Program-made: the position numbers and the translations under genes
Part shown: piece by piece, positions 1,274 through 35,467 of the stretch
Layout: the number at the start of each line of letters is the position of its first letter
Position numbering within the stretch: position 1 is the stretch's first letter
Notes under the pieces: generated by a model
What the model saw: only the letters and a program-made list of their open reading frames with translations
Told to the model about the DNA's origin: nothing
The model's database searches: none
NCBI GenBank assembly: GCA_964545575.1
Contig: CAZJFL010000001.1
Span: 69,878-133,877, forward strand
Origin: an uncultured Planctomycetales bacterium
GTDB taxonomy: Bacteria; Omnitrophota; Gorgyraeia; Gygaellales; Profunditerraquicolaceae
Length of the DNA stretch: 64,000 nucleotides
Direction of reading: 5' to 3'

Positions 1274-2608
1274 TTATAAATCCTTACTCTTTAAACCCAG
1301 CTCTGCGATTGCCTGCTCAGGGCTACTGGTATATTTACGGCAGAACCTGGTGACCTGCTGTATGTCGGTAATGCCCTTTTCTGAAAGCGCATCCACCAAT
1401 CTCACCCTTCTCTTTAATTCCTCGACCAGCTCTCTGGAAGATCTGCCGCTTATCTGGGAGAGCCTGTCCCTGTAGGTGCCGCCCCCTCCCGGCTCAAGGA
1501 ATTCGTGCTTGGGCAAATCATAAGACCAGAGAGAGCCCAATAAAACCGTGTTTTTTTCCATCCCGCCGGTCTCAGCCAGCTCTCCTACCACGCGCTTGAT
1601 CTGGCCGTCTACTTTAAACCGGCGCATAACCACAAAGACATCGATTAAGTTTATCAGCGCGTTGGGTATATTCATCGGTTCGTTTTCCAGGCGCATTACC
1701 GTCTCTCTGGGTGTGGATGCGTGCAGGGTCCCCATGCAATACTTGCCGATATTCATGGCGGTCATCAAATCCTGGGCTTCTCTGCCCCTGACCTCTCCCA
1801 CAATCACTCTATCCGGGCGCATGCGTAAAGAGTTCTTGACTAAATCCGCCAGCGTCGTTTCCTCATCACTCTCCAGGCGCGAACAATTCTCTTCCAAATC
1901 GGTATTTAACTCTAAGGTGTCCTCAATAACCACTATCCGTTCTTTTGCGGGGATAAAACTAAAAAGCGCGTTTAATAAAGTGGTCTTGCCCGAACCCGGG
2001 CCTCCGGAGATGATAATATTTGCCGGCTTGACATTAAGGCCTTCTACGTAAAGCCAAAGCTGCGCGGCTAATTCAGGGTTAAGCGCGCCGTTATTCACCA
2101 GCTCGATGATGCTTAAGGGTTTTTCTTTGGCGCGGGTGATGGTAATCTGCGGCCCGAAGGGGGAATACACGATGTTGGCTCTTCCCTTTACTTCGGCAAG
2201 CTCGACGTTATTTATCTTTTTGATATCTTTCCTCCCCGAGAAAAAAACCAGCTTTTTGATAAAGAGGTCCAACTCTTCGCGGGAAGAAAACTTTTTATCC
2301 GTAGTGATCATGCCTACCCTGGTCTTGTGCACATAGATAGGAGAAAGATAGTTGATCATAATATCTTCCACTTCCGGGTCGGAAAGAAACTCCTCGATGA
2401 TCCCGTAGGAAAGAAACTCGTTAAAAAACTGCTCTAACTCCAGCCCCTTGCATTTATGGATAAACCTCTGGCAGACGGGAGAATTATAGTATTCCAAAAA
2501 AACCTGAAAGATGACCTCACGTTTGCAGGTCAGGTCTTGCAGCAGAAAAAGCTTACCCAATAGCTTATCCAGTATATCGTTTTCAATAGCGATTCTTTCT
2601 TTATCCAT
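1274..2608 (-). CDS. Type II/IV secretion system ATPase (TadA/CpaF/FlaI-like)
   Basis: 444 aa with Walker A GGPGSGKTTLLNALFSF, Asp box VIEDTLEL and His box GTLHAS, the architecture of the GspE/VirB11/FlaI family. Its stop lies 2 nt upstream of the dnaX start, consistent with co-transcription. Confidence 0.8.
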   Translation of the reverse strand: MDKERIAIENDILDKLLGKLFLLQDLTCKREVIFQVFLEYYNSPVCQRFIHKCKGLELEQFFNEFLSYGIIEEFLSDPEVEDIMINYLSPIYVHKTRVGMITTDKKFSSREELDLFIKKLVFFSGRKDIKKINNVELAEVKGRANIVYSPFGPQITITRAKEKPLSIIELVNNGALNPELAAQLWLYVEGLNVKPANIIISGGPGSGKTTLLNALFSFIPAKERIVVIEDTLELNTDLEENCSRLESDEETTLADLVKNSLRMRPDRVIVGEVRGREAQDLMTAMNIGKYCMGTLHASTPRETVMRLENEPMNIPNALINLIDVFVVMRRFKVDGQIKRVVGELAETGGMEKNTVLLGSLWSYDLPKHEFLEPGGGGTYRDRLSQISGRSSRELVEELKRRVRLVDALSEKGITDIQQVTRFCRKYTSSPEQAIAELGLKSKDL

Positions 2609-2622
2609 ATTTTCTCCTTATT

Positions 2623-2686
2623 GGGCATGCACTCCGCTCGCTAAACCGCTTGTCGCGGTTTGCCCTTCGGGCCGCTCGCTTGAGTG
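2623..2686 (-). ncRNA. Candidate structured RNA element, copy A, next to tRNA-Ser(GCT)
   Basis: GCACTC-CGCTCGCT-[hairpin AAACCGC/GCGGTTT]-[GCCC-UUCG-GGGC]-CGCTCGCT-GAGTGC. It shares its architecture with the copy at 6590-6646 but shows compensatory changes in the stems. Strand of function is uncertain. Confidence 0.4.
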
Positions 2687-2721
2687 CCGAAAAAATTTTG
2701 TTTGTCTCAAAATTTTTTCGG
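2687..2721 (-). terminator. Perfect AT-rich hairpin abutting and overlapping the tRNA-Ser(GCT) 3' end
   Basis: CCGAAAAAATTTTG-tttgtctc-AAAATTTTTTCGG, a 13-bp stem. A similar hairpin lies downstream of tRNA-Ser(TGA). Confidence 0.4.
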
Positions 2722-2808
2722 AGAGGCAGGGATTCGAACCCTGGGGGCCAGTTACCCAGCCCAATTGCTTAGCAGGCAACTCCGTTAAGCCAGCTCCGGC
2801 ACCTCTCC
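2719..2808 (-). tRNA. tRNA-Ser(GCU), class II with long variable arm
   Basis: Manual fold of GGAGAGGTGCCGGAGCTGGCTTAACGGAGTTGCCTGCTAAGCAAT...GGTTCGAATCCCTGCCTCTCCG gives a 7-bp acceptor stem, 3-bp D stem, anticodon loop CUGCUAA and a T arm GGTTCGAATCC. CCA is not encoded. Confidence 0.85.
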
Positions 2809-2877
2809 AAATTCAATGAGCGCACAATTTACGGAACGAAGTGAATGTAAATTGTATGCGCGAATTAATCCCGCACG

Positions 2878-3333
2878 CTATTTATTACGTTTGCGGGAAA
2901 AAAATTCCGTTAATAAAGAGCTGCATTCCTTTTCTAAAATCCCGCCCTTTACTTTAATGCGATGATTTAATTTCTTATGATTTATAATATTCACTACAGA
3001 GCCGCATGCGCCTGTTTTGGGGTCCTTTGCGCCGTAATACAGGTTCTTAATGCGCGCCAGAACAGAAGCACCGGCGCACATACTGCACGGTTCAATTGTA
3101 ACATAAAGACAGCATCCGGACAACCATTTGCTCCCCAGGTAATTAGTCGCAGAAGTCAAAGTCAACATCTCGGCGTGTGCGGTAGGATCCTTCAGGGATT
3201 CAACTTGATTATATCCGCGGGCGATAATCCTATCTTTATAAACTACCACCGCTCCGACGGGAACTTCATCTTTTTCAAAGGCTTTACGGGCTTCCTTTAA
3301 AGCCTCCTGCATAAAACGGGTATGTTTTAGCAT
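2878..3333 (-). CDS. tadA: tRNA-specific adenosine(34) deaminase
   Basis: 151 aa with the CDA-fold zinc motifs HAEMLTL and IEPCSMCAGA. Its size matches TadA, and it sits immediately downstream of its substrate tRNA-Arg(ACG). Confidence 0.85.
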   Translation of the reverse strand: MLKHTRFMQEALKEARKAFEKDEVPVGAVVVYKDRIIARGYNQVESLKDPTAHAEMLTLTSATNYLGSKWLSGCCLYVTIEPCSMCAGASVLARIKNLYYGAKDPKTGACGSVVNIINHKKLNHRIKVKGGILEKECSSLLTEFFSRKRNK

Positions 3334-3345
3334 TGCCTAAATAAG

Positions 3346-3419
3346 TGCGCCTGGCTGGGATCGAACCAGCAACAACCAGCTCCGTAGGCTGATGCTCTAT
3401 CCAATTGAGCTACAGGCGC
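3346..3419 (-). tRNA. tRNA-Arg(ACG)
   Basis: GCGCCTGTAGCTCAATTGGATAGAGCATCAGCCTACGGAGCTGG...GGTTCGATCCCAGCCAGGCGCA, with anticodon loop CUACGGA. This is the A34-to-I editing substrate of TadA. Confidence 0.85.
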
Positions 3420-3465
3420 GTTAATCTTTTTGCCTCCTGTAGCGAATCCGCCAACGTTCTGTGGC

Positions 3466-3481
3466 AGAGAGCTACAGGCGC
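3466..3481 (-). repeat. 15-16 nt exact copy of the tRNA-Arg(ACG) 5' end (gagctacaggcgcgt), about 47 nt upstream of the tRNA
   Basis: An exact match to tRNA positions 1-14 plus one flanking base, sitting in an imperfect hairpin CCTGTAGC...GCTACAGG. Confidence 0.6.
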
Positions 3482-3486
3482 GTATC

Positions 3487-3798
3487 TTAAAGCTGAAGGA
3501 TAATTTCAAAGAGGAACTTCATATCCAGAATCGCAAGCAAGATCAAAATAGGTCCTGCTATCAGGTGGTAATTAAATAACAGGTTATCTAGCCAGGTTAT
3601 ATTGGCGTCCAAGGGGACAAGCGCAGGCGTATGAAACACCTCCAGTTTTAAGCGCTTGTCTATCTTATAATAAATCTCCAGCGAGAAAGTAAAAATCATG
3701 CTTATGATACAGATTAATCCGTAAGTAACGAAAACTAAGGCGCTTAAAAACCACCCCAATTCATCGACAGTCATGAAATTGATATTGGTATTAAACAT
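3487..3798 (-). CDS. Small hydrophobic membrane protein, hypothetical
   Basis: 103-aa ORF with two predicted TM stretches (LGWFLSALVFVTYGLICIISMIF; LIAGPILILLAILDM). No recognisable family. Confidence 0.35.
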   Translation of the reverse strand: MFNTNINFMTVDELGWFLSALVFVTYGLICIISMIFTFSLEIYYKIDKRLKLEVFHTPALVPLDANITWLDNLLFNYHLIAGPILILLAILDMKFLFEIILQL

Positions 3799-3856
3799 TT
3801 TTGCGTTCCTTTCTCGTCACTACGCCCATTGTCGGACAAATAATCCTAGTACTAAT

Positions 3857-3993
<137 letters not shown>

Positions 3994-4003
3994 CAGATAT
4001 GAA

Positions 4004-5005
4004 TTAGACTTTTGAATTCTTATAAGACCTAAATCTCTCTATATGTTTACTATTATGACTACCGATTATTTGCATATATTTGTTAACTTCTTTTCTATCA
4101 TAAATGAAAATATGCCTTCCTCCGGCAGTTTTGCAATTTAAACTAAACCTCAGAAACATTTTATACGCCGAATTCAAAAGAGCTTTTGAATGACTCGTAA
4201 AACACAAACCCATATGCCTGTATTTAATTCCCTTGGTAGTGTGATTATGGAAATAAATACCTCCATCGGTATCCATTAAGCCCCTCAGGCAACTTTTTAC
4301 AAACTCGTTATCCTTAAAAATCCATTGCGGCACATCTGTGCCATTTAACATCTTGTTCCCTTTCTTCATACCGCAATTTATCAGAAAAAGAACGAGGTTT
4401 TTACTCGATACTGTAACAACAATGGTATTTTTATCCCTGACTGTGACAGTAGAGGTTATCTTAAATAAATCAGTGACAATTTTTTTGATGAAATAGGCAT
4501 AATCCCTGTCAGTTTTATTATTATAGATTCTGACTTGATGTTCATTTATTGAGCCATCGCCTAAAAGAATCCCAATAAATTCTGCTAACAAAGAAGATCT
4601 TCGAGGATAAATAATATTTTTCCTTAACTTAAAACCTACCTTTTTAGCGAATTCCGGGTCATTCCGAAATTTCAAAGCAGAGACCATACCCCCTTTTCTT
4701 CTGCCTTCTACTGTACCAAGACGCCCGTATAATTCATTCCGCCTTAAAGCCCCCAACCTTGCCGCGCTCTTAATATTCCAATCATCCGGGAGAACTTCTA
4801 TTCTTGGAACAGAAATTCTTAGTTTCTTCTTTAATGATTGAAGAGAAACGTAATTCATTTGATATTTATCCCTTCGCCAGTCAAATAAAGTTCGCTTATC
4901 CACCTTGCAAATTCCGGCTAAATTATGCCAATCAAGATTATTTTCTTTCTTAATCTTCCCCAGAAAACTTCTCTGTTTATTTTCTAGAAATTTTACTCTT
5001 GGCAT
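4004..5005 (-). CDS. Double-motif LAGLIDADG homing endonuclease, free-standing
   Basis: Two LAGLIDADG motifs (LAEFIGILLGDGSI and LRGLMDTDGGIYF) about 100 aa apart, plus an N-terminal basic HTH-like region. The true start is MPRVKF (ATG at 5003-5005). The track ORF 4004..5191 is artificially extended by reading through tRNA-Ser(CGA) and the 59-bp repeat. Confidence 0.75.
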   Translation of the reverse strand: MPRVKFLENKQRSFLGKIKKENNLDWHNLAGICKVDKRTLFDWRRDKYQMNYVSLQSLKKKLRISVPRIEVLPDDWNIKSAARLGALRRNELYGRLGTVEGRRKGGMVSALKFRNDPEFAKKVGFKLRKNIIYPRRSSLLAEFIGILLGDGSINEHQVRIYNNKTDRDYAYFIKKIVTDLFKITSTVTVRDKNTIVVTVSSKNLVLFLINCGMKKGNKMLNGTDVPQWIFKDNEFVKSCLRGLMDTDGGIYFHNHTTKGIKYRHMGLCFTSHSKALLNSAYKMFLRFSLNCKTAGGRHIFIYDRKEVNKYMQIIGSHNSKHIERFRSYKNSKV

Positions 5006-5048
5006 AATATAATTCCAACCGCTCTGCCACCTCTCCAAGAATTTTATT

Positions 5049-5107
5049 GTATGGCGGCGCCGAAGCCAGAGGCTTCGGCATCCGCCATGTTTTTCAAGAG
5101 AAAAACA
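5049..5107 (-). repeat. 59-bp perfect direct repeat, copy 2
   Basis: Identical to 3857-3915 and positioned immediately 3' of tRNA-Ser(CGA). Confidence 0.85.
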
Positions 5108-5196
5108 TGGCGGAGAGTGGAGGATTTGAACCTCCGTACCTCTTACGAGGTAACGCGCTTTCGAGGCGCGCGCTTTCAACCACTCAGCCAACTCTC
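5107..5196 (-). tRNA. tRNA-Ser(CGA), class II
   Basis: GGAGAGTTGGCTGAGTGGTTGAAAGCGCGCGCCTCGAAAGCGCG-[variable arm]-GGAGGTTCAAATCCTCCACTCTCCGCCA, with anticodon loop CUCGAAA. CCA is encoded. Confidence 0.85.
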
Positions 5197-5381
5197 CAAA
5201 ATTTAAACGGACCCGTTTTGTTTACTTAAGCCGCTTCTCGAAGACCGCAAGCGCCGAATTCATATTGTCGGGGCTTCGATGAAATCCCCCATAGTCGGCA
5301 TTATCATCTTCAATCGCGCAGTCTGCAATACCAGCGTATTTACATATCCATTCGACCGCTTCACGCATGCCGTCGATACCA

Positions 5382-6461
5382 TCACCCTCCGGGTTCGGGT
5401 CCTGTTTTTACATAGGTTCTTTTGCCAAATGAATTACTACGGCCATCAAGACAAGTTCCGCAAACCGGTAAGCTTTTTCTATCCGCATGTATTTTTCTTC
5501 TAAGATTTTGGTATTTTCCATTTCTCCAGATATCCCGTAAATCGTCTCGGAAAATATTTCCCATTATATGAAAAGATGCTAGATCGCTACAGCAAGGAGT
5601 TACATCGCCGTTAGAATTGATGACCGTGTAATACTCGATAGAACTACAGGAATTCGGTACTGCGACCTCGTTTACAAAAAGTCCGTCTTTTTCAACGTAG
5701 TTTCTATTAAACGAGGTATCGCGGGGAAAAATCTCTTTTGCTACTTTCTGAAAGTCAGAGCCATCAAAACCGATACCGACCGCTTTTTCCCTATATACAT
5801 CAGCATGCAGTTTTCCGGACATCTCTAACATCATTTGGCGTTGATGTTCGTTATGTTTCATGACAATAAATTGTAATTCGACTATCGGCTTTCTAGATTT
5901 CAGCTCTTTTTTTGCTTGATAGATTAATTCAAATCCTTTTATAACTGCGCTAAAATCAGCTCCTTTTCGGTATTTGTTATAGGTTTCGTGATCCGCGCCA
6001 TCAAGGCAGATAATTAAGTAATATAGGCCGCTTTTAACAACATATTTACAATATTCGATATCCTTAAAAAAAGTACCGTTCGTACATATGCGGATTCTAA
6101 TTCCAGATTCAGTGGCGTATCTAACCATTTGTAGAATATCTTTATGAAGGAAAGGTTCGCCAAGATTCCATAAATCTATATGGGCAATATAAGATCTAAC
6201 TTCATCAACGATTTTTTTAAATTCCTGCAGGCTCATTGATCTTGCTAGCCGATTTAATTTATTCGTACCTGTGGGGCATGCGATACAGCGGAGGTTACAA
6301 AGATTTGTCGGCTCTATAACAAGATAAAAAGGCAGAGGGGAAAATAGCGACTTTCCCGTTAATCCTTTTAATAATTTATATAAAATAATGTCAAAACGTC
6401 TTTTCTTGATTATTAAACAAAGCGCTTCTATTTTTTCAGTGAGGTATTTCATGAAATTCAT
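5382..6461 (-). CDS. Radical SAM protein with C-terminal SPASM/twitch domain
   Basis: CNLRCIACP (CxxxCxxC) in the N-terminal part and a Cys-rich C-terminal region (TPCCSDLASFH...CGTCLDG). A 47-codon continuation in the +1 frame immediately after the stop suggests a possible frameshift or a small downstream ORF. Confidence 0.8.
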   Translation of the reverse strand: MNFMKYLTEKIEALCLIIKKRRFDIILYKLLKGLTGKSLFSPLPFYLVIEPTNLCNLRCIACPTGTNKLNRLARSMSLQEFKKIVDEVRSYIAHIDLWNLGEPFLHKDILQMVRYATESGIRIRICTNGTFFKDIEYCKYVVKSGLYYLIICLDGADHETYNKYRKGADFSAVIKGFELIYQAKKELKSRKPIVELQFIVMKHNEHQRQMMLEMSGKLHADVYREKAVGIGFDGSDFQKVAKEIFPRDTSFNRNYVEKDGLFVNEVAVPNSCSSIEYYTVINSNGDVTPCCSDLASFHIMGNIFRDDLRDIWRNGKYQNLRRKIHADRKSLPVCGTCLDGRSNSFGKRTYVKTGPEPGG

Positions 6462-6514
6462 TATTTTGTTTGAAAGTTTATTTCTATTATTTTACCATTA
6501 TTTCGGTAGCCCTA

Positions 6515-6556
6515 CGATTTCGAGGCGCGCGCTTTCAACCACTCAGCCAACTTTCC
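6515..6556 (-). repeat. Diverged copy (40/42) of the 5' half of tRNA-Ser(CGA), positions 1 to about 42, upstream of the radical-SAM gene
   Basis: ggaaagttggctgagtggttgaaagcgcgcgcctcgaaatcg versus tRNA ggagagttggctgagtggttgaaagcgcgcgcctcgaaagcg. Similarity ends after the anticodon loop. Confidence 0.75.
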
Positions 6557-6589
6557 AAAGCTATAAATTTTCCTTATCAGAATGTATTG

Positions 6590-6646
6590 TGGTGCTAGCA
6601 CCACGCTCGCTATTTTGCTTGTTGCAAAATTACGCTCGCTTTGGTG
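6590..6646 (-). ncRNA. Candidate structured RNA element, copy B, next to tRNA-Ser(TGA)
   Basis: GGTGC...CGCTCGCT-[hairpin ATTTTGC/GCAAAAT]-CGCTCGCT-TTGGTGCC. It has the same architecture as 2623-2686, with covarying stems. Confidence 0.4.
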
Positions 6647-6681
6647 CCGAAAATTTTTTCTTTATCAGAAAAAATTTTCGG
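6647..6681 (-). terminator. AT-rich perfect hairpin abutting the tRNA-Ser(TGA) 3' end
   Basis: CCGAAAATTTTTTC-tttatcag-AAAAAATTTTCGG. Confidence 0.4.
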
Positions 6682-6765
6682 AGGCGGAAGGATTCGAACC
6701 CTCGATGGGCGTAAACCCACAACGGTTTTCAAGACCGCCGCATTCAACCGCTCTGCCACGCCTCC
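6679..6765 (-). tRNA. tRNA-Ser(TGA), class II
   Basis: GGAGGCGTGGCAGAGCGGTTGAATGCGGCGGTCTTGAAAACCGT-[variable arm]-GAGGGTTCGAATCCTTCCGCCTCCG, with anticodon loop CUUGAAA. Confidence 0.85.
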
Positions 6766-6770
6766 CTCTC

Positions 6771-7448
6771 TTACCTTAAAAATAATTGCCTAAAGATAAG
6801 GTAAAATATATCGCTTGCCGCCCGGAAAGAACCCGAATAAAAATTGACCAACGAAAACTCTTTAAAAATAAAGCTCAGGCCCAGCCCAAGCAACGCAATA
6901 TTAACCAGGTACAGGAAAGAAAAACCAAAGAGATAGTTGGCCTTTAAAAAATCCCCCTGCTTCAGGCGCAGAGATTTTGCGCTGAATACAAGGTGCAGGG
7001 CGATGCTAAAGCCAAAAAAGAAAATAAAATAATTTATTAGATCCGCCGATTTAAAAATAGCCGCGGCCGGCGCATAGAGGACAAACAGGATGATGGTATA
7101 GACGGGTAATAGATAGGGCGCGAATTTTACCAAGGGATGAAAAAACTTAAATATTGCCTCTACCAGCTTCTGCCCCCTGGAATAAACTGTTACCGGCTCC
7201 CAAAGAAACAGATAAACCGCAAGAAACGCGATAACACCGCCCCAAAAATACCACTGAAGTTTAAAATCTATAAGATCAAGCTCCTTGATAAAGGCAACCG
7301 ACAGTGAATAAACAAAAGGCAGCAGGCAAAGCCCCAGAATGAACTTTACGATGCCGAAAACGCGGCCGGAGAAACCGGACATTCTAGGCACGGGAGCGCT
7401 GATTTCCACTTTGGGAATTTCTTTTTTAAGGGATTCTTTCTTTTTCAC
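6771..7448 (-). CDS. Polytopic integral membrane protein, hypothetical
   Basis: 225 aa with about 6 hydrophobic helices. No recognisable motif. Confidence 0.5.
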   Translation of the reverse strand: MKKKESLKKEIPKVEISAPVPRMSGFSGRVFGIVKFILGLCLLPFVYSLSVAFIKELDLIDFKLQWYFWGGVIAFLAVYLFLWEPVTVYSRGQKLVEAIFKFFHPLVKFAPYLLPVYTIILFVLYAPAAAIFKSADLINYFIFFFGFSIALHLVFSAKSLRLKQGDFLKANYLFGFSFLYLVNIALLGLGLSFIFKEFSLVNFYSGSFRAASDIFYLIFRQLFLR

Positions 7449-7457
7449 AATAAATTT

Positions 7458-8726
7458 CTATCCTATCCTCTCTTGGCCGTCAAGATATGCCTTTAAAACC
7501 TCAGGGACAATAACTGATCCGTCTTTCTGCTGATAATTTTCTAAGATAGCTACCAGGGTGCGCGCCAAAGCCACTCCGGAGCCGTTTAAAGTGTGCACAA
7601 AATCTAATTTTTTAGTATCTTTTCTTCTGAACTTTATATTTGCCCTGCGGGCCTGAAAACTTTCAAAATTACTGCAGCTGGAAACCTCCAGCCACTTATC
7701 TATTCCCGGGGCATAGGCCTCTAAATCATAACATTTGCTCGCGGCAAAACTTAAATCTTGCGTCGGCAAAACCGCTACCCTGTATGGAAGGCCAAGAAGT
7801 TGCAGTACCTCTTCGGCATCTGCGACCAGTTTTTCCAATTCGTCATATGAACTTTCCGGTTTCACAAACTTGACCAGTTCTACCTTATCAAACTGGTGCA
7901 CCCTGATCAGGCCTTTGGTGTCTTTGCCGTAGGAACCTGCTTCCCGGCGGAAGCAGGCGGTATAGGCGGTATAATAAACCGGCAACTTATCTTCATCCAG
8001 TATCTCATCGCGGAATATATTGGTTAGCGGGACTTCGGCGGTAGGAATAAGAAACAGATCATCATCTTTTAAGCGGTACATGTCTTCTTCCAGTTTCGGG
8101 AGCTGGCCGGTTCCGGTCATCGAGGCGCGGTTGACTAAAAACGGCGGGGATACCTCGGTGTAACCGTGTTTTTTGATATGTAAATCCAGCATAAAATTAA
8201 TCAGCGCCCGCTCCAGCCTGGCGCCCCAGCCTTTATAAAGTATGAAGTTTGAGCCGCTAATCTTTGCCGCCCGGTTAAAATCGATGATATCCAGATGCTG
8301 GCTGATTTCTATGTGGGTAGCCGGTTTAAAATCGATTCTTTTAGGTTCGCCCCAGGAACGCACTATTTCTTTCTTTGTCGGGTCTCCGACAGGAACAGAT
8401 GCGTGCGCTATATTCGGGATAACTAAAAGCAGCTCGGACAGCTGGATATCCAGCTTTTTGACTTCGTCTTCCAGCTTACCGATCTCCTGCGAAACCTTCT
8501 TCATGGAAAATATTTTATCCTTGGCGTCTTTCTTAGCCTTTAACAAAGCGCTGATCTCATCATTGGCTTTGTTTTGCCTGGCGCGGTAATCTTCTAATTC
8601 GGAAAGGCTCCTGCGGCGCAGATCGTCTAATTTAAGCAAGCTATCCAGGTCCAGCTTTAAATTGCGATTCTCCAAAGACTGCCTTACCAGATCCGCGTTT
8701 TCTCGGATAAACTTTAGGTCTAACAT
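7458..8726 (-). CDS. serS: Seryl-tRNA synthetase
   Basis: 422 aa with an N-terminal coiled-coil tRNA-binding arm and class II aaRS motifs (FRREAGS...[12 protein letters not shown]...[10 protein letters not shown]). It lies next to four tRNA-Ser genes. Confidence 0.95.
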
Positions 8727-8752: not shown

Positions 8753-10213
8753 CTATCCCTTAATAACGCACAATGGCCGCATACGACAGACGCGTTTGGA
8801 GATTCCTGCGCGATGCACCACATCTACTACGTCGTTAACATCCTTGTAGGCCTGGGGTGCTTCTTCTACGAGTGTTCCTCTACCTGAGGCCTTAACCATT
8901 ATACCCTTGGATTCCAATTCTTTCAATAAGGTAGCTTCATTTATCGACCTGCTTGCGGCGGTGCGGGATTTTAACCTGCCTGCGCCATGGCAGGTCGAAC
9001 CGAAAGTTTCTTCCATGGCTTTTTGGGTACCCACTAAGAGATAAGAATTTCTCCCCATATCTCCGGGTATAATCACCGGCTGGCCTATTTTTTTATACCT
9101 TTCAGGCAACGCCGGATGCCCCGGGCCAAAAGCGCGGGTGGCGCCTTTACGGTGGACGCAGAGCATTTTTTCTTTTCCTTCAATAGTATATTTTTCGATC
9201 TTGGCGATATTGTGCGCGACGTCGTAAATCAAGAACATCCCTAATTTCTGCCAAGAGATAGCGAATATTTTTTCAAAAACCTTACGGGTAAGATGCATTA
9301 AACACTGCCGGTTTGCCCAGGCATAGTTTGCCGCGCACTTCATCGCTCCCAGATACGCCTTACCTTCGGCAGAATTAACCGGTGCGCAGGCCAGCTGCCT
9401 GTCCGGGACATTGATCTGGTATTTCTCGAGGCAATGTACCATATCTCTGGTATAGTCCTCGCAAATCTGATAGCCCAATCCCCGTGAGCCGGAATGAATC
9501 ATCAGCGTAATCTGCCCAAGATTTAAACCTAATTCATCAGTTATATCCCTATCGTATAATTGATCGATGGCCTGCACTTCCAGGAAGTGATTCCCTGAAC
9601 CTAAGGTGCCGGACTGGGCCTTACCTCTTTCGTAAGCCCGCTGGGAGACCGTATCCGGATCAGCCCCCTGGATGGCGCCGTTCTCTTCAGTGCATTCCAG
9701 GTCATCTTCCGTGCCGTAGCCTTTTTCTACCGCCCACTTTGAACCTTTAAGTAAAATCTCCTTTTCTTCTCTGGCGCTTACCCTGATATCGCCTTTAGAG
9801 CCAACTCCTGCAGGAATATCATTAAATAAAGCGTAAACCAGGTCTTTTATTTTATCTTTTATATCTTCAAATTGAAGGTTGGTTTTAAGCATGCGCACGC
9901 CGCAATTTATGTCAAAACCGACCCCTCCGGGAGAAATTACGCCTCCGTTTTCGATATCGGTCGCCGCCACCCCTCCAATGGGAAAACCATAGCCCCAGTG
10001 GATATCGGGCATAGCCATTGATGCATTTACTATGCCGGGCAAAAACGCCACGTTAGCTACCTGCTCCGCTGCCTTATCCTGCCTGATATCTTTCAATAAT
10101 TTTTCATCGGCATAGATAATCCCGGGCACGCGCATCCCCCTTTTATAGCTTTTAGGTATCCGCCAGCGGAAATCGTCAATTTTCTCTAAAGGTACGGCCG
10201 GGTTTTCAGACAT
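8753..10213 (-). CDS. rtcB: RNA-splicing ligase RtcB (3'-phosphate/5'-OH RNA ligase)
   Basis: 486 aa matching the RtcB signature regions (MPDIHWGYGFPIGG, GFDINCGVRML, SGSRGLG, HNIAK, HRKGATRA). Confidence 0.95.
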   Translation of the reverse strand: MSENPAVPLEKIDDFRWRIPKSYKRGMRVPGIIYADEKLLKDIRQDKAAEQVANVAFLPGIVNASMAMPDIHWGYGFPIGGVAATDIENGGVISPGGVGFDINCGVRMLKTNLQFEDIKDKIKDLVYALFNDIPAGVGSKGDIRVSAREEKEILLKGSKWAVEKGYGTEDDLECTEENGAIQGADPDTVSQRAYERGKAQSGTLGSGNHFLEVQAIDQLYDRDITDELGLNLGQITLMIHSGSRGLGYQICEDYTRDMVHCLEKYQINVPDRQLACAPVNSAEGKAYLGAMKCAANYAWANRQCLMHLTRKVFEKIFAISWQKLGMFLIYDVAHNIAKIEKYTIEGKEKMLCVHRKGATRAFGPGHPALPERYKKIGQPVIIPGDMGRNSYLLVGTQKAMEETFGSTCHGAGRLKSRTAASRSINEATLLKELESKGIMVKASGRGTLVEEAPQAYKDVNDVVDVVHRAGISKRVCRMRPLCVIKG

Positions 10214-10622
10214 CCAAAATCACCTCTGCCTGCCAGCCGCCTGCCTTCTTTGCGATTTTTAATTGATGGTAAGTGGCGGCTTTTATCTCGGTGTTGACTT
10301 TATAGTTATTGATATTGCTTGCCACGGCAACTGCCTCCAGGCGCTTCTGGTTTATTTTTTTTATGCGTAAATCCTCAAAAATCAGGCCCTTAGCCGAAGA
10401 TAAAGATATTAATTCATTCAGCCAGTTAATCAGGAGCTCCTCTAGATTATCCGCTTCCTGGACTATCGCCAAATTATGCGGCTTTGTATTTTTAATTTTC
10501 TTTTTCTCTGCGATGATCTGGAATATGGCGAGGCCGGCGTTCCTGAACAGGTCTTTTAAAGAACCGCCTTTTACCCTGATGCCTATATCTGCGGTATGGT
10601 CGATAAGTTCGTATTTAACCAC
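10206..10622 (-). CDS. Archease (RtcB activator)
   Basis: 138 aa beginning MVKYELIDHTADIGIRVKG, the conserved archease N-terminal HTAD motif. It overlaps rtcB by 8 nt, consistent with an operon. Confidence 0.85.
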   Translation of the reverse strand: MVKYELIDHTADIGIRVKGGSLKDLFRNAGLAIFQIIAEKKKIKNTKPHNLAIVQEADNLEELLINWLNELISLSSAKGLIFEDLRIKKINQKRLEAVAVASNINNYKVNTEIKAATYHQLKIAKKAGGWQAEVILDV

Positions 10623-10637
10623 GCAGTTATAATTTTA

Positions 10638-10713
10638 TGGTGGGCCATGCGGGAGTCGAACCTGCGACCTTGACATTAAGAGTGTCCTGCTCTACCAATT
10701 GAGCTAATGGCCC
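10638..10713 (-). tRNA. tRNA-Lys(CUU)
   Basis: GGGCCATTAGCTCAATTGGTAGAGCAGGACACTCTTAATGTC...GGTTCGACTCCCGCATGGCCCACCA, with anticodon loop CUCUUAA. CCA is encoded. Confidence 0.8.
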
Positions 10714-10851: not shown

Positions 10852-11571
10852 TTACAGAATCTCGCACTTATCTCCGATGATTTCCTTGATTTTTTGAAGT
10901 TTACTCTTACCTACCGGCAAGATACCGGGTTCGCTGGTAGCGCGTACGGGGGAGTTCAACTGTACTTTATCCGGGTTTATTTTATCTATGGCTTCTTTTA
11001 ATTTTCTGATCTCGGGCAGGACGTCATTTACGCCTTTTACCAGCATCACCTCCAGCCAAATCTGGCCTGCAAACTCTTTTCTTAAGGCTATCAGGCCGTC
11101 TATGATATTCTTTATTTTTATGCCGCTTAAAGGCCGGTCTATTTTTTCAAATACTTCTTGAGTTGCTGCATCCAAAGAGGGGACTATTAAACCTGCACCT
11201 GATAATTCCTGCCTGACCCCGGGCGCCCCCAACAATGAAGAGTTAGTCAATACCGCTACGGGAAGAGAAGTAATTTTTTTTATCTCCGTAATTAACCTGC
11301 CTATCTTATCATGTAAAAGCGGCTCGCCCGAACCGGATAGGGTAACATAATTTAACCTGCTTGCTTCCGAAGGGTTGTTTAGAAGCCATAGCTTAAATTC
11401 AGCCAGGATCTCCTCGGGCGGAATATACTCTTTACGTTCGCCGGTCTTATCGCTGGTCTTGCCCAGCTGACAGTAAATACAGTCGAAATTGCAGGCCTTT
11501 GAGGGAGTGAGGGTCATCCCTAAAGAAAACCCCAGCCTCCGTGAATTTACCGGACCGTACAGGTATAGCAT
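10852..11571 (-). CDS. Radical SAM domain protein (COG0731/PflX-like Fe-S oxidoreductase)
   Basis: YGPVNSRRLGFSLGMTL...CNFDCIYCQLG is a CxxxCxxC motif in a characteristic N-terminal context. Exact function unknown. Confidence 0.7.
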   Translation of the reverse strand: MLYLYGPVNSRRLGFSLGMTLTPSKACNFDCIYCQLGKTSDKTGERKEYIPPEEILAEFKLWLLNNPSEASRLNYVTLSGSGEPLLHDKIGRLITEIKKITSLPVAVLTNSSLLGAPGVRQELSGAGLIVPSLDAATQEVFEKIDRPLSGIKIKNIIDGLIALRKEFAGQIWLEVMLVKGVNDVLPEIRKLKEAIDKINPDKVQLNSPVRATSEPGILPVGKSKLQKIKEIIGDKCEIL

Positions 11572-34510: not shown

Positions 34511-35287
34511 TCAAGTATTTTTTTTAATTAACTCCTTGGCTACCTTTTCTCCGGCAAGAAGCATTCCGCCGAAAATCGGCCCCATGCGCGGGCCCCCGAA
34601 TACCGCGTTTGCGCACATGCCGCAGGCATATAACCCGGGGCAGATTTCTTTTGAGTTCTTTACAATCGTATCCTCTCCTACCTCTGCCCACATAGACTGT
34701 TCACCCATGATTTTTCCGGTTTTTGTCTTCAGCCGGATGCCGGATTTCTTCTCAATAATCCGGGCTATCTCCGCAGGATGGCCGGTGGCATCCACCACGA
34801 ATTTAGCGCGCATACTAATGGGGTCAACATGCAGATCGGCTATTTCAACCGCTGTCCAGTTTAATACCAGCCCCACTACTTTCTTATTGCGCACCATCAC
34901 GTCTTCGGCGCTGATAAGATTAAAAATTTTCAAACCCGCCTTTACCGCCTTAGAGCAAATAGTTGAAACTGATTCGATGGAATCCGCTAAATAATAGCCT
35001 CGGGCGTAGCGTCTGCTTTTAATGCCAAACTCATCCAGTATCCTTCTGGCTTTCTCCTGGACCACAATTTCATTAAACATCATACCCCCGCCCCACATGC
35101 CGCCGCCGACGGAAAGCTTTCTTTCAAAAAGCACTACTTTTTTTCCTGCCTTGGCTAAATAATAACCGCAAACCATACCTGCCGGGCCGGCGCCGACAAT
35201 AGCCACCTCAACATCAAGTGCTGCAACCAGCTTATCTTTATAAGATTCTATGATTGCATTGGAAATCACTATTTCATCTAACTTCAT
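34511..35287 (-). CDS. thi4: Thiazole synthase Thi4 (archaeal/sulfide-dependent type)
   Basis: FAD motif [10 protein letters not shown] and the GMWGGGMMF region. It lies downstream of a TPP riboswitch. Confidence 0.85.
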
Positions 35288-35359
35288 TTTAGTCTCCTCC
35301 CTTAACCCTTAATAAATAGGAAACCCTTATGCCAAATACATAAGGGTTATACACATTCA

Positions 35360-35455
35360 CTCCTCCTTTTCCTACGCTGGTATTATCCAGATCAGGTTAT
35401 CAGGGTCACCCCGCTTAAGCGGGGACTCTCAGGCCGTTATCACGACCTCCCCATA
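35360..35455 (-). promoter_or_regulatory. TPP (THI-box) riboswitch in the thi4 leader
   Basis: On the minus strand: GGGGUGACCCUGAUAACCUGAUCUGGAUAAUACCAGCGUAGGAA plus an upstream CUGAGAG, the two conserved THI-element blocks. Confidence 0.75.
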
Positions 35456-35467
35456 ATCTTATTTATT

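Follow-up and report, generated by a model that had tools for sequence, protein, structure and literature searches.

Probable insertion of a foreign radical-SAM gene into a tRNA-Ser cluster of a Candidatus Omnitrophota bacterium, leaving a 5' tRNA stump

How did a single radical S-adenosylmethionine (radical-SAM) gene come to lie between an intact tRNA-Ser(CGA) gene and a second copy of that tRNA's 5' half? The arrangement was found in a stretch of 64,000 nucleotides (nt) of contig CAZJFL010000001.1 (assembly GCA_964545575.1), hereafter the window, within a cluster of chromosomal tRNA-Ser genes from a Candidatus Omnitrophota bacterium. We consider it moderately probable that a foreign fragment of ~1.1 kb carrying one radical-SAM gene was recombined into this cluster and left a dead tRNA-Ser(CGA) stump behind. 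Taken alone, the radical-SAM gene is an ordinary orphan of horizontal transfer and no peptide system; the informative part is the layout, with foreign genes upstream of an intact tRNA and behind the stump of a displaced one, recurring in the window and in other Omnitrophota. The scar is unusual solely in that the 5' part of the tRNA is duplicated, a feature that recurs at tRNA loci of the phylum.

tRNA genes were called with ARAGORN and Rfam, and short repeats were searched with blastn-short in the 64-kb window. The full tRNA-Ser(CGA) gene, which a sequence-only reading had placed at 5107-5196, was indeed present, one base further along (5108-5197, minus strand). Its first 87 nt were identical to the tRNA of three relatives (L014, L017 and L078). 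The repeat search confirmed a direct same-strand copy of tRNA positions 1-42 at 6515-6556, matching at 40 of 42 nt (mismatches G4A and G39T) and at 43/45 when three upstream bases were added; repeat comparison agreed with the earlier view that the duplicated part was the 5' and not the 3' half. Positions 5-39 of the tRNA were exact in the stump (35 nt, E = 4.7e-15). Continuous identity stopped at position 38, the last base of the anticodon loop, and the two sequences were unrelated past position 41. The stump was not called as a tRNA by ARAGORN or Rfam. Four other metagenome contigs (L001-L003 and L016) carried the region at 100% identity, excluding an assembly artefact.

It is very improbable that the 5' half is functional, whether as a split-tRNA half joined by the RtcB and archease encoded 2-4 kb upstream, as a decoy, or as a tRNA-like leader of the radical-SAM mRNA. 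The half directly precedes the radical-SAM gene in the same orientation, but the complete tRNA-Ser(CGA) makes it unnecessary, and it carries an acceptor-stem substitution. It is also confined to this lineage, so no conservation supports a function, and RtcB, archease and SerRS were syntenic in relatives that have no stump. A group I intron or split tRNA was considered separately and ruled out: Rfam detected no group I or other intron and no RNA family besides tRNAs in 2500-7000 (E <= 1), and the complete tRNA-Ser(CGA) was present.

The base composition set the bracketed gene apart from most of the window. GC content and GC at third codon positions (GC3) were 36.9 and 32.5% in the radical-SAM gene and 34.6 and 33.5% in a neighbouring LAGLIDADG gene, the two lowest of the 51 open reading frames (ORFs) in the window; the other 49 ORFs had a GC of 46.1 +/- 2.5% and a GC3 of 51.7 +/- 4.5%, placing the radical-SAM gene ~4 standard deviations below. 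The genome as a whole has a GC of 46%. Together with the empty or otherwise filled sites of relatives (below), this bore out the view that the repeats bracket inserted DNA.

The sequence downstream of the gene revealed where the fragment ends. The open frame of ~55-60 codons after the radical-SAM stop (5407-5225), already noticed in the sequence-only reading, was confirmed, with a stop codon at 5222-5224 and a GC of 52%. An exhaustive HMMER search of this frame against 1.84 billion representatives returned 39 matches (best E 4.5e-13; best full-length E 5e-10), which were the C-terminal ends of proteins of 280-320 amino acids (aa). Homology began at residue 2-3 of this 61-codon frame and covered residues 2-60 up to the partners' C-termini, including 13 codons upstream of the ORF's ATG, indicating that the frame is the stump of a truncated gene and not a peptide gene. 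The radical-SAM gene is thus not, as had been stated, the sole coding sequence between the repeats. The family, which is alpha/beta-hydrolase-like, carries a GFSRG-type motif; it belonged to no Pfam family and gave only a 0.007 match to the PHB-depolymerase esterase. The closest relatives of the stump, P0243 (164 aa) and P0242 (150 aa), were short chimeras; P0243 joins a cytidine-deaminase domain, at a DPNP motif, to these same 60 C-terminal residues. The tail may be repeatedly left behind or recombined.

The radical-SAM ORF overran the ends of its homologues and read ~7 codons into the hydrolase-like stump in another frame. To judge from this frame, the ORF has lost its own stop codon, and the second junction was placed at ~5406 for this reason. 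Because the leader and gene were AT-rich versus 52% GC in the stump, the imported piece was taken to run from 6514 to ~5406 (~1.1 kb). Junction 1 thus lies at tRNA position ~39-42 and junction 2 ~60 codons from the end of the hydrolase-like gene; both ends of the fragment cut off something that was there before.

Relatives were found in metagenomes with a 31-nt probe from the tRNA-Ser(CGA) half, which matched nothing there but the window itself and the intact tRNAs of relatives; no copy was found in viral contigs or other elements. The tRNA-Ser(UGA) gene came after a conserved 225-aa gene in all Omnitrophota relatives. In L017 this gene was followed by tRNA-Ser(UGA), a 47-nt hairpin spacer and tRNA-Ser(CGA), which is an empty site. 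In L078/L014, the nearest relative with long DNA, two methyltransferase genes lay between the two tRNAs, and the locus lacked stumps as well as the radical-SAM and LAGLIDADG genes; in L009, L012 and L026 the same interval held other cargo. In the phylum, the stretch from tRNA-Ser(UGA) to tRNA-Ser(CGA) serves as a slot with variable cargo, and the radical-SAM gene in it is lineage-specific. The structured trailer behind tRNA-Ser(UGA) in the window was intact (covariance model match 102.6 bits), so the insertion lies downstream of it. A phage origin was also considered and rejected, as the enzyme had only distant relatives in viral contigs (<=36% identity, and <=30% for matches covering most of the protein) and the tRNA-half probe had no viral match. 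The features of the locus are collected in Table 1.

Table 1. Coordinates of features in and around the insertion (positions in the 64-kb window)
Feature	Position	Strand	Basis
Pseudogene, 5' half (positions 1-42) of tRNA-Ser(CGA)	6515..6556	-	repeat comparison
AT-rich leader from tRNA breakpoint to radical-SAM start codon, 53 nt, GC 25%	6462..6514	-	sequence, GC
Radical-SAM enzyme with twitch-type (partial SPASM) auxiliary-cluster domain, 359 aa	5382..6461	-	Pfam, alignment, PDB
Truncated-gene stump, C-terminal ~60 codons of a ~300-aa alpha/beta-hydrolase-like family	5225..5407	-	HMMER, alignment
Intact tRNA-Ser(CGA), encoded CCA	5108..5197	-	ARAGORN, Rfam
tRNA-Ser(UGA), upstream neighbour of the insertion slot	6679..6765	-	ARAGORN, Rfam
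Conserved structured trailer of tRNA-Ser(UGA), intact	6591..6681	-	alignment, RNAalifold, covariance model
82-nt repeat: T arm, acceptor 3' strand, CCA and two trailer hairpins	5059..5140	-	repeat search
Stump of ancestral tRNA-Ser(GGA), first 21 nt	5016..5036	-	comparison with L014/L078
Free-standing double-motif gene for a putative LAGLIDADG homing endonuclease, 333 aa, GC 35%	4004..5005	-	Pfam PF14528, family search
Replacement tRNA-Ser(GGA)	3906..3993	-	ARAGORN, comparisons
Direct repeat of tRNA-Arg(ACG) 5' end, 15 nt (13 tRNA + 2 upstream)	3469..3483	-	repeat search, E 0.05

A scan of the fetched Omnitrophota loci showed further 5' stumps, which precede intact tRNAs of matching anticodon. 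L018 contained a tRNA-Leu(TAG) stump to about position 66 and a tRNA-Ser(CGA) stump to position 35. A tRNA-Arg(ACG) stump in L033 reached position 50 and was followed by a divergent replacement; a tRNA-Ser(UGA) stump in L010 reached position 26, and there the apparent start of a new tRNA-Ser is cut off by the contig end. In the window, the short tRNA-Arg(ACG) repeat lay 47 nt upstream of the intact tRNA-Arg(ACG) (3345-3419) and was missing from L014/L078; it may be the footprint of an earlier insertion since lost. The breakpoints fell at 13, 21, 26, 35, 38-41, 50 and 66 along the tRNA, a scatter without a fixed crossover site. Fragments from the 3' part of a tRNA numbered just two in the scanned loci.

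Three observations stand beside these scars. The 47-nt segment between the tRNA-Arg repeats (3469-3483 and 3405-3421) can pair with the fragment. In L018 (1361-1427 and 1653-1690), both stumps (Leu-TAG and Ser-CGA) ran into GC-rich hairpins that resemble each other (ccccgcc...ggcggggtcccgc) and precede an AT-rich tract; a small element, mobile or recombinogenic, may sit at these breakpoints. In L008 (5397-7190), a large serine recombinase gene lay directly after tRNA-Ser(UGA), and the recombinase 3' end together with an opposite-strand tRNA-Ser(GCU) formed an inverted repeat with the 3' flank of tRNA-Ser(UGA); this region may be an invertible or integrated element.

The most likely process would be segmental replacement by incoming or ectopic DNA, in which homology within the conserved tRNA or beyond it anchors one end and the second end is joined illegitimately. 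At least one illegitimate end is favoured because the breakpoints are scattered, the gene at the far junction is truncated and no recombinase is present. The AT-rich fragment (53-nt leader plus radical-SAM ORF) would have been joined at one end to tRNA-Ser(CGA) position ~39-42 and at the other ~60 codons before the end of the hydrolase-like gene. The illegitimate junctions are thus at tRNA position ~39-42 and at ~5406, and the homologous junction is hidden, the intact tRNA being identical in relatives. The route may have been homology-facilitated illegitimate recombination, in which a one-sided homology anchor is combined with an illegitimate join on the other side (PMC3240628), or double-strand-break repair; a site-specific integrase would be unneeded for either. 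The intact downstream tRNA-Ser(CGA) would preserve decoding, leaving the stump free to decay (two substitutions already), and retention of the 5' stump would leave cargo and new tRNA behind the tRNA promoter. Sequential cassette displacement that leaves orphan remnants has been described in type VI secretion system effector-immunity arrays of Vibrio cholerae (PMC5361080). As in that system and in the one of PMC3240628, the displaced resident gene remains as an orphan remnant beside the new copy. The V. cholerae arrays serve as an analogy. In the window, a tRNA gene of ~90 nt or the DNA flanking it would provide the anchor, and the process is read from its scars.

The locus also resembles genomic islands and prophages integrated at tRNA genes by tyrosine integrases, in that deviant DNA lies by a tRNA, a partial-tRNA direct repeat is present and the intact tRNA is retained. 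Site-specific entry would require an element with a tRNA-Ser(CGA) 5'-half att site and a tyrosine integrase acting at the anticodon loop, the integrase and the remainder having been deleted later. The block of identity starts no more than 3 nt from the 5' end of the tRNA and extends as far as the anticodon loop, the second tRNA-Ser(CGA) stump (L018) breaks at 35/36, and integrase or recombinase genes lie by tRNA-Ser genes in L008, L018 and L021, all of which would fit. However, the absence of an integrase, already remarked in the sequence-only reading, held up: no integrase, transposase or recombinase gene was found within 13 kb of the insertion. Known tRNA-targeting integrases, as Williams reportedly set out in 2002, duplicate the 3' part of the tRNA. 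The window locus, with no integrase or recombinase in 1-13 kb and a 5' segment as its repeat, does not qualify as an integrase-type tRNA-targeted element. Its cargo lies upstream of the intact tRNA, its far end is an obviously illegitimate junction in a truncated gene, the breakpoints of related cases vary (13, 21, 26, 50 and 66 in the other stumps), and the 31-nt probe found no copy in viral contigs or any other element. Site-specific entry is therefore quite unlikely.

Tandem duplication of tRNA-Ser(CGA), for example by unequal recombination between trailers, with a later insertion-deletion that destroyed the upstream 3' half and most of the hydrolase gene, is an unlikely origin as well. The long trailer repeats common to tRNA-Ser genes could drive unequal exchange, the L018 tRNA-Leu stump is ~98% identical to its intact copy and so points to an intragenomic origin, and relatives carry a tRNA-Ser(CGA) identical to the intact copy. 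Yet two intact tRNA-Ser(CGA) copies were seen in no relative examined, and the excess of 5' over 3' stumps would be left unexplained. The same capture of foreign DNA would still be required, making duplication a variant of segmental replacement rather than an alternative to it.

Several points weigh against segmental replacement as we describe it. The relatives with empty sites have only ~66-70% DNA identity to the window, which leaves the timing and order of events uncertain. Searches found no donor for the fragment; its nearest homologue is 79% identical and in another context. The upstream flanks of both tRNA copies show only a weak, AT-rich similarity to the L017 spacer and to L014, so either copy may be the resident one. 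The 5'-over-3' bias comes from about ten cases at loci chosen via the window's own genes. Finally, the tRNA-Ser(CGA) stumps of the window and L018 break independently in or beside the anticodon loop, the classic integrase crossover site.

What the imported gene encodes was examined by aligning its product with 15 homologues (16 sequences, 37-79% identity). The protein scored 59.8 bits against Pfam PF04055 (cut-off 29.5), which places it in the radical-SAM superfamily, and its CX3CX2C core motif (C55-N-L-R-C59-I-A-C62) was invariant over all 16 sequences. All 40 invariant alignment columns were kept. The Pfam SPASM model covered residues 272-337, but the seven-Cys SPASM motif (CX9-15GX4C ... 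CX2CX5CX3C ... C) was incomplete: only C272, C290(C291), C334 and C337 were present (spacing C-x17-C-x43-C-x2-C), and the CX5CX3C part and final Cys were absent from the window protein and all 15 homologues. The C-terminal SPASM/twitch Cys cluster of the earlier description was thus retained as a twitch domain in a radical-SAM protein, but not as a full SPASM motif. In phmmer comparisons, C272, C290, C334 and C337 paired with cysteines of the BtrN chain (PDB 4m7s), a twitch pattern of the BtrN type. The radical-SAM protein is full-length and probably functional, with one auxiliary cluster like that of BtrN. The paired BtrN cysteines (C169, C187, C232 and C235) are reported to be the cluster ligands. 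BtrN is the prototype one-cluster twitch enzyme and oxidises an aminoglycoside sugar.

Twitch enzymes acting on sugars (BtrN, PDB 4m7s/4m7t; BlsE, 7vob) share with the window enzyme the CX3CX2C core and the four-Cys C-terminal domain, and the gene neighbourhoods of its homologues are related to carbohydrates. The similarity is distant, however (E ~1e-10, over parts of the protein), and the window enzyme has an extra N-terminus of 48 residues and is orphaned from any pathway. The closest solved-structure relatives in a PDB search act on sugars or lipids. Five homologue neighbourhoods were examined (L004, L005/L006, L031, L032 and the P0002 contig). Genes for glycosyltransferases, Wzy/Wzz, PMT_2, DegT aminotransferase or polysaccharide export occurred in four of the five (L004, L005/6, L031 and the P0002 contig), and the fifth homologue sat by transposase genes. 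The nearest homologue (P0002) was 79% identical in a different gene context. Members of the family normally reside in gene clusters for making glycans or polysaccharides, and the copy in the window is an orphan; a literature search returned no paper on this radical-SAM family in glycan clusters. The substrate is most likely a sugar or another small molecule and not a peptide. Transcription of the gene presumably comes from read-through of the tRNA operon, which runs in the same direction.

The sequence-only reading had raised the possibility that the enzyme is a maturase of a ribosomally synthesised and post-translationally modified peptide (RiPP). It is almost certainly wrong that the enzyme matures the product of the Cys-containing ORF at 5222-5368, or that this ORF is its frameshifted C-terminus, as far as the sequences can tell. 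The ORF is open, has two Cys and lies directly downstream, and the Pfam SPASM model does match the enzyme; but the supposed substrate is the C-terminal 60 residues of a ~300-aa family whose homology extends beyond its ATG. The frameshift proposal failed on length, because the 15 aligned homologues (mostly 340-365 aa) ended ~6-10 residues before the window enzyme's stop. A proposed search for a co-occurring small peptide gene was also negative: no conserved small ORF was found in the homologue neighbourhoods examined, and neither tblastn of the ORF on L004-L006 nor the gene lists of the four loci L004, L005/L006, L031 and L032 yielded a relative. A precursor peptide as such was rejected, since Pfam, NCBIfam and tblastn searches were empty and the exhaustive HMMER search showed a gene stump. 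The maturase assignment itself was abandoned on the one-cluster BtrN-like twitch domain, the glycan-type neighbourhoods, the lack of a precursor and the short N-terminus. Just 48 residues precede the radical-SAM core, leaving no room for a peptide-recognition domain, and Pfam gave no RRE or PqqD match in the enzyme. The suggested comparison with SPASM subfamilies, run with NCBIfam, gave no assignment: none of the named radical-SAM/SPASM subfamilies (tungsten cofactor maturase, AhbD, NirJ and others) reached its cut-off, the best match being TIGR04317 (118.6 bits, cut-off 380), and RiPP-type models scored 42-69 bits against cut-offs of 265-650.

A second scar of the same kind lies immediately downstream. 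The 21-nt stump of an ancestral tRNA-Ser(GGA) was identical to the tRNA-Ser(GGA) of L014/L078 (22/22 with one upstream base, E 7.6e-07) and lay 8 nt upstream of the start codon of the LAGLIDADG gene, whose product carries the motifs LLGDGSI and LMDTDGGI. This gene was present in the window and missing from the same site in L014/L078. The tRNA-Ser(GGA) behind it had a D arm, anticodon stem and variable arm unlike those of the ancestral type and was nearly identical to the tRNA linked with an 82%-identical endonuclease in L033. The ancestral stump and the divergent, L033-like tRNA indicate that a cassette of endonuclease and tRNA overwrote the ancestral gene. At other loci, where endonucleases were 52-82% identical and upstream genes differed, a tRNA-Ser(GGA) followed within 0-40 nt of the endonuclease gene, and the coupling held in all nine distinct arrangements examined (window and L018-L034). 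Judged from these comparisons, window 3906-5005 has the appearance of a cassette, lodged in a cellular genome, that combines a homing endonuclease with a tRNA. The Omnitrophota LAGLIDADG family was abundant (437 database matches; loci L018-L030, L033 and L034), and in L026 the endonuclease gene overlapped tRNA-Ser(GGA) by 25 nt.

For this neighbouring cassette, and not for the radical-SAM gene, a known parallel is T4 SegB, a free-standing homing endonuclease gene in a phage tRNA gene cluster (PMC2330249). In both, an intronless endonuclease gene lies between tRNA genes, presence or absence is polymorphic among relatives and the adjacent tRNA allele moves along with the endonuclease (here in the window and L033). 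Unlike SegB, the Omnitrophota gene is LAGLIDADG and not GIY-YIG, resides in a cellular chromosome and not in a phage, and is coupled specifically to tRNA-Ser(GGA). By analogy with SegB in the T4 tRNA cluster, the break may have been made by the endonuclease. No paper on an endonuclease-tRNA link in Omnitrophota was found in a literature search. The layout points to an abundant LAGLIDADG family with, probably, a tRNA-Ser gene as target.

A broader proposition, possible but doubtful, is that Omnitrophota tRNA genes are recurrently overwritten from the promoter-proximal side by tRNA-carrying cassettes, with the 5' stump and its promoter driving cargo and new tRNA; the LAGLIDADG cassette would be the clearest case and the radical-SAM gene a passenger. 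Such overwriting would parallel, in cells, the intronless homing of phage tRNA clusters and would mirror classical integration at tRNA sites, with 5' in place of 3'. The layout, if general, would reveal an integrase-free route of gene acquisition at tRNA loci and account for tRNA pseudo-fragments in these genomes.

The surrounding gene order on the minus strand was archease, RtcB, SerRS, the 225-aa membrane protein and tRNA-Ser(UGA), followed by the tRNA half, the radical-SAM gene, the short open frame and tRNA-Ser(CGA), and then by the LAGLIDADG gene, tRNA-Ser(GGA), a 103-aa ORF, tRNA-Arg(ACG), TadA and tRNA-Ser(GCU). The 225-aa protein had matches solely in Candidatus Omnitrophota genomes. 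A promoter and terminator scan gave no excess over shuffles and was uninformative. Enzymes acting on tRNA clustered with their substrates (window 2878-3419, 6679-8726 and 8753-10640): TadA lay right after tRNA-Arg(ACG), SerRS upstream of four tRNA-Ser genes, and RtcB and archease upstream of those, and this synteny was retained in relatives L015 and L078.

A structured element of ~90 nt was found directly 3' of tRNA-Ser genes of four different anticodons, at 2622-2721 (-) and 6591-6681 (-) in the window, 9222-9314 and 9755-9845 in L078 and 2543-2632 in L026. It comprises a hairpin that pairs with the tRNA 3' end and a branched part with an outer stem GGCACTC/GAGTGCC and two GACAAG loops, and RNAalifold showed compensatory changes in 20 of 31 pairs over five sequences. 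Its covariance model matched behind tRNA-Ser genes only, and it corresponds to no Rfam family. The 82-nt repeat at 5059-5140 was shared at 93% with the tRNA-Ser(GGA) copy at 3857-3938; the differences were all in the tRNA part, and the trailer portion read identically in both copies. In L014/L078 this trailer was present only after tRNA-Ser(CGA), and the repeat suggests recent gene conversion or duplication between the tRNA-Ser(GGA) and tRNA-Ser(CGA) loci. Elsewhere in the window, a second, unrelated radical-SAM gene (239 aa, 10852-11571, minus strand) adjoined the block of tRNA-Arg(TCG), tRNA-Lys, archease and RtcB, and a thiamine pyrophosphate (TPP) riboswitch was found at 35352-35463 on the minus strand (Rfam, 60.6 bits), upstream of the gene at 34511-35287.

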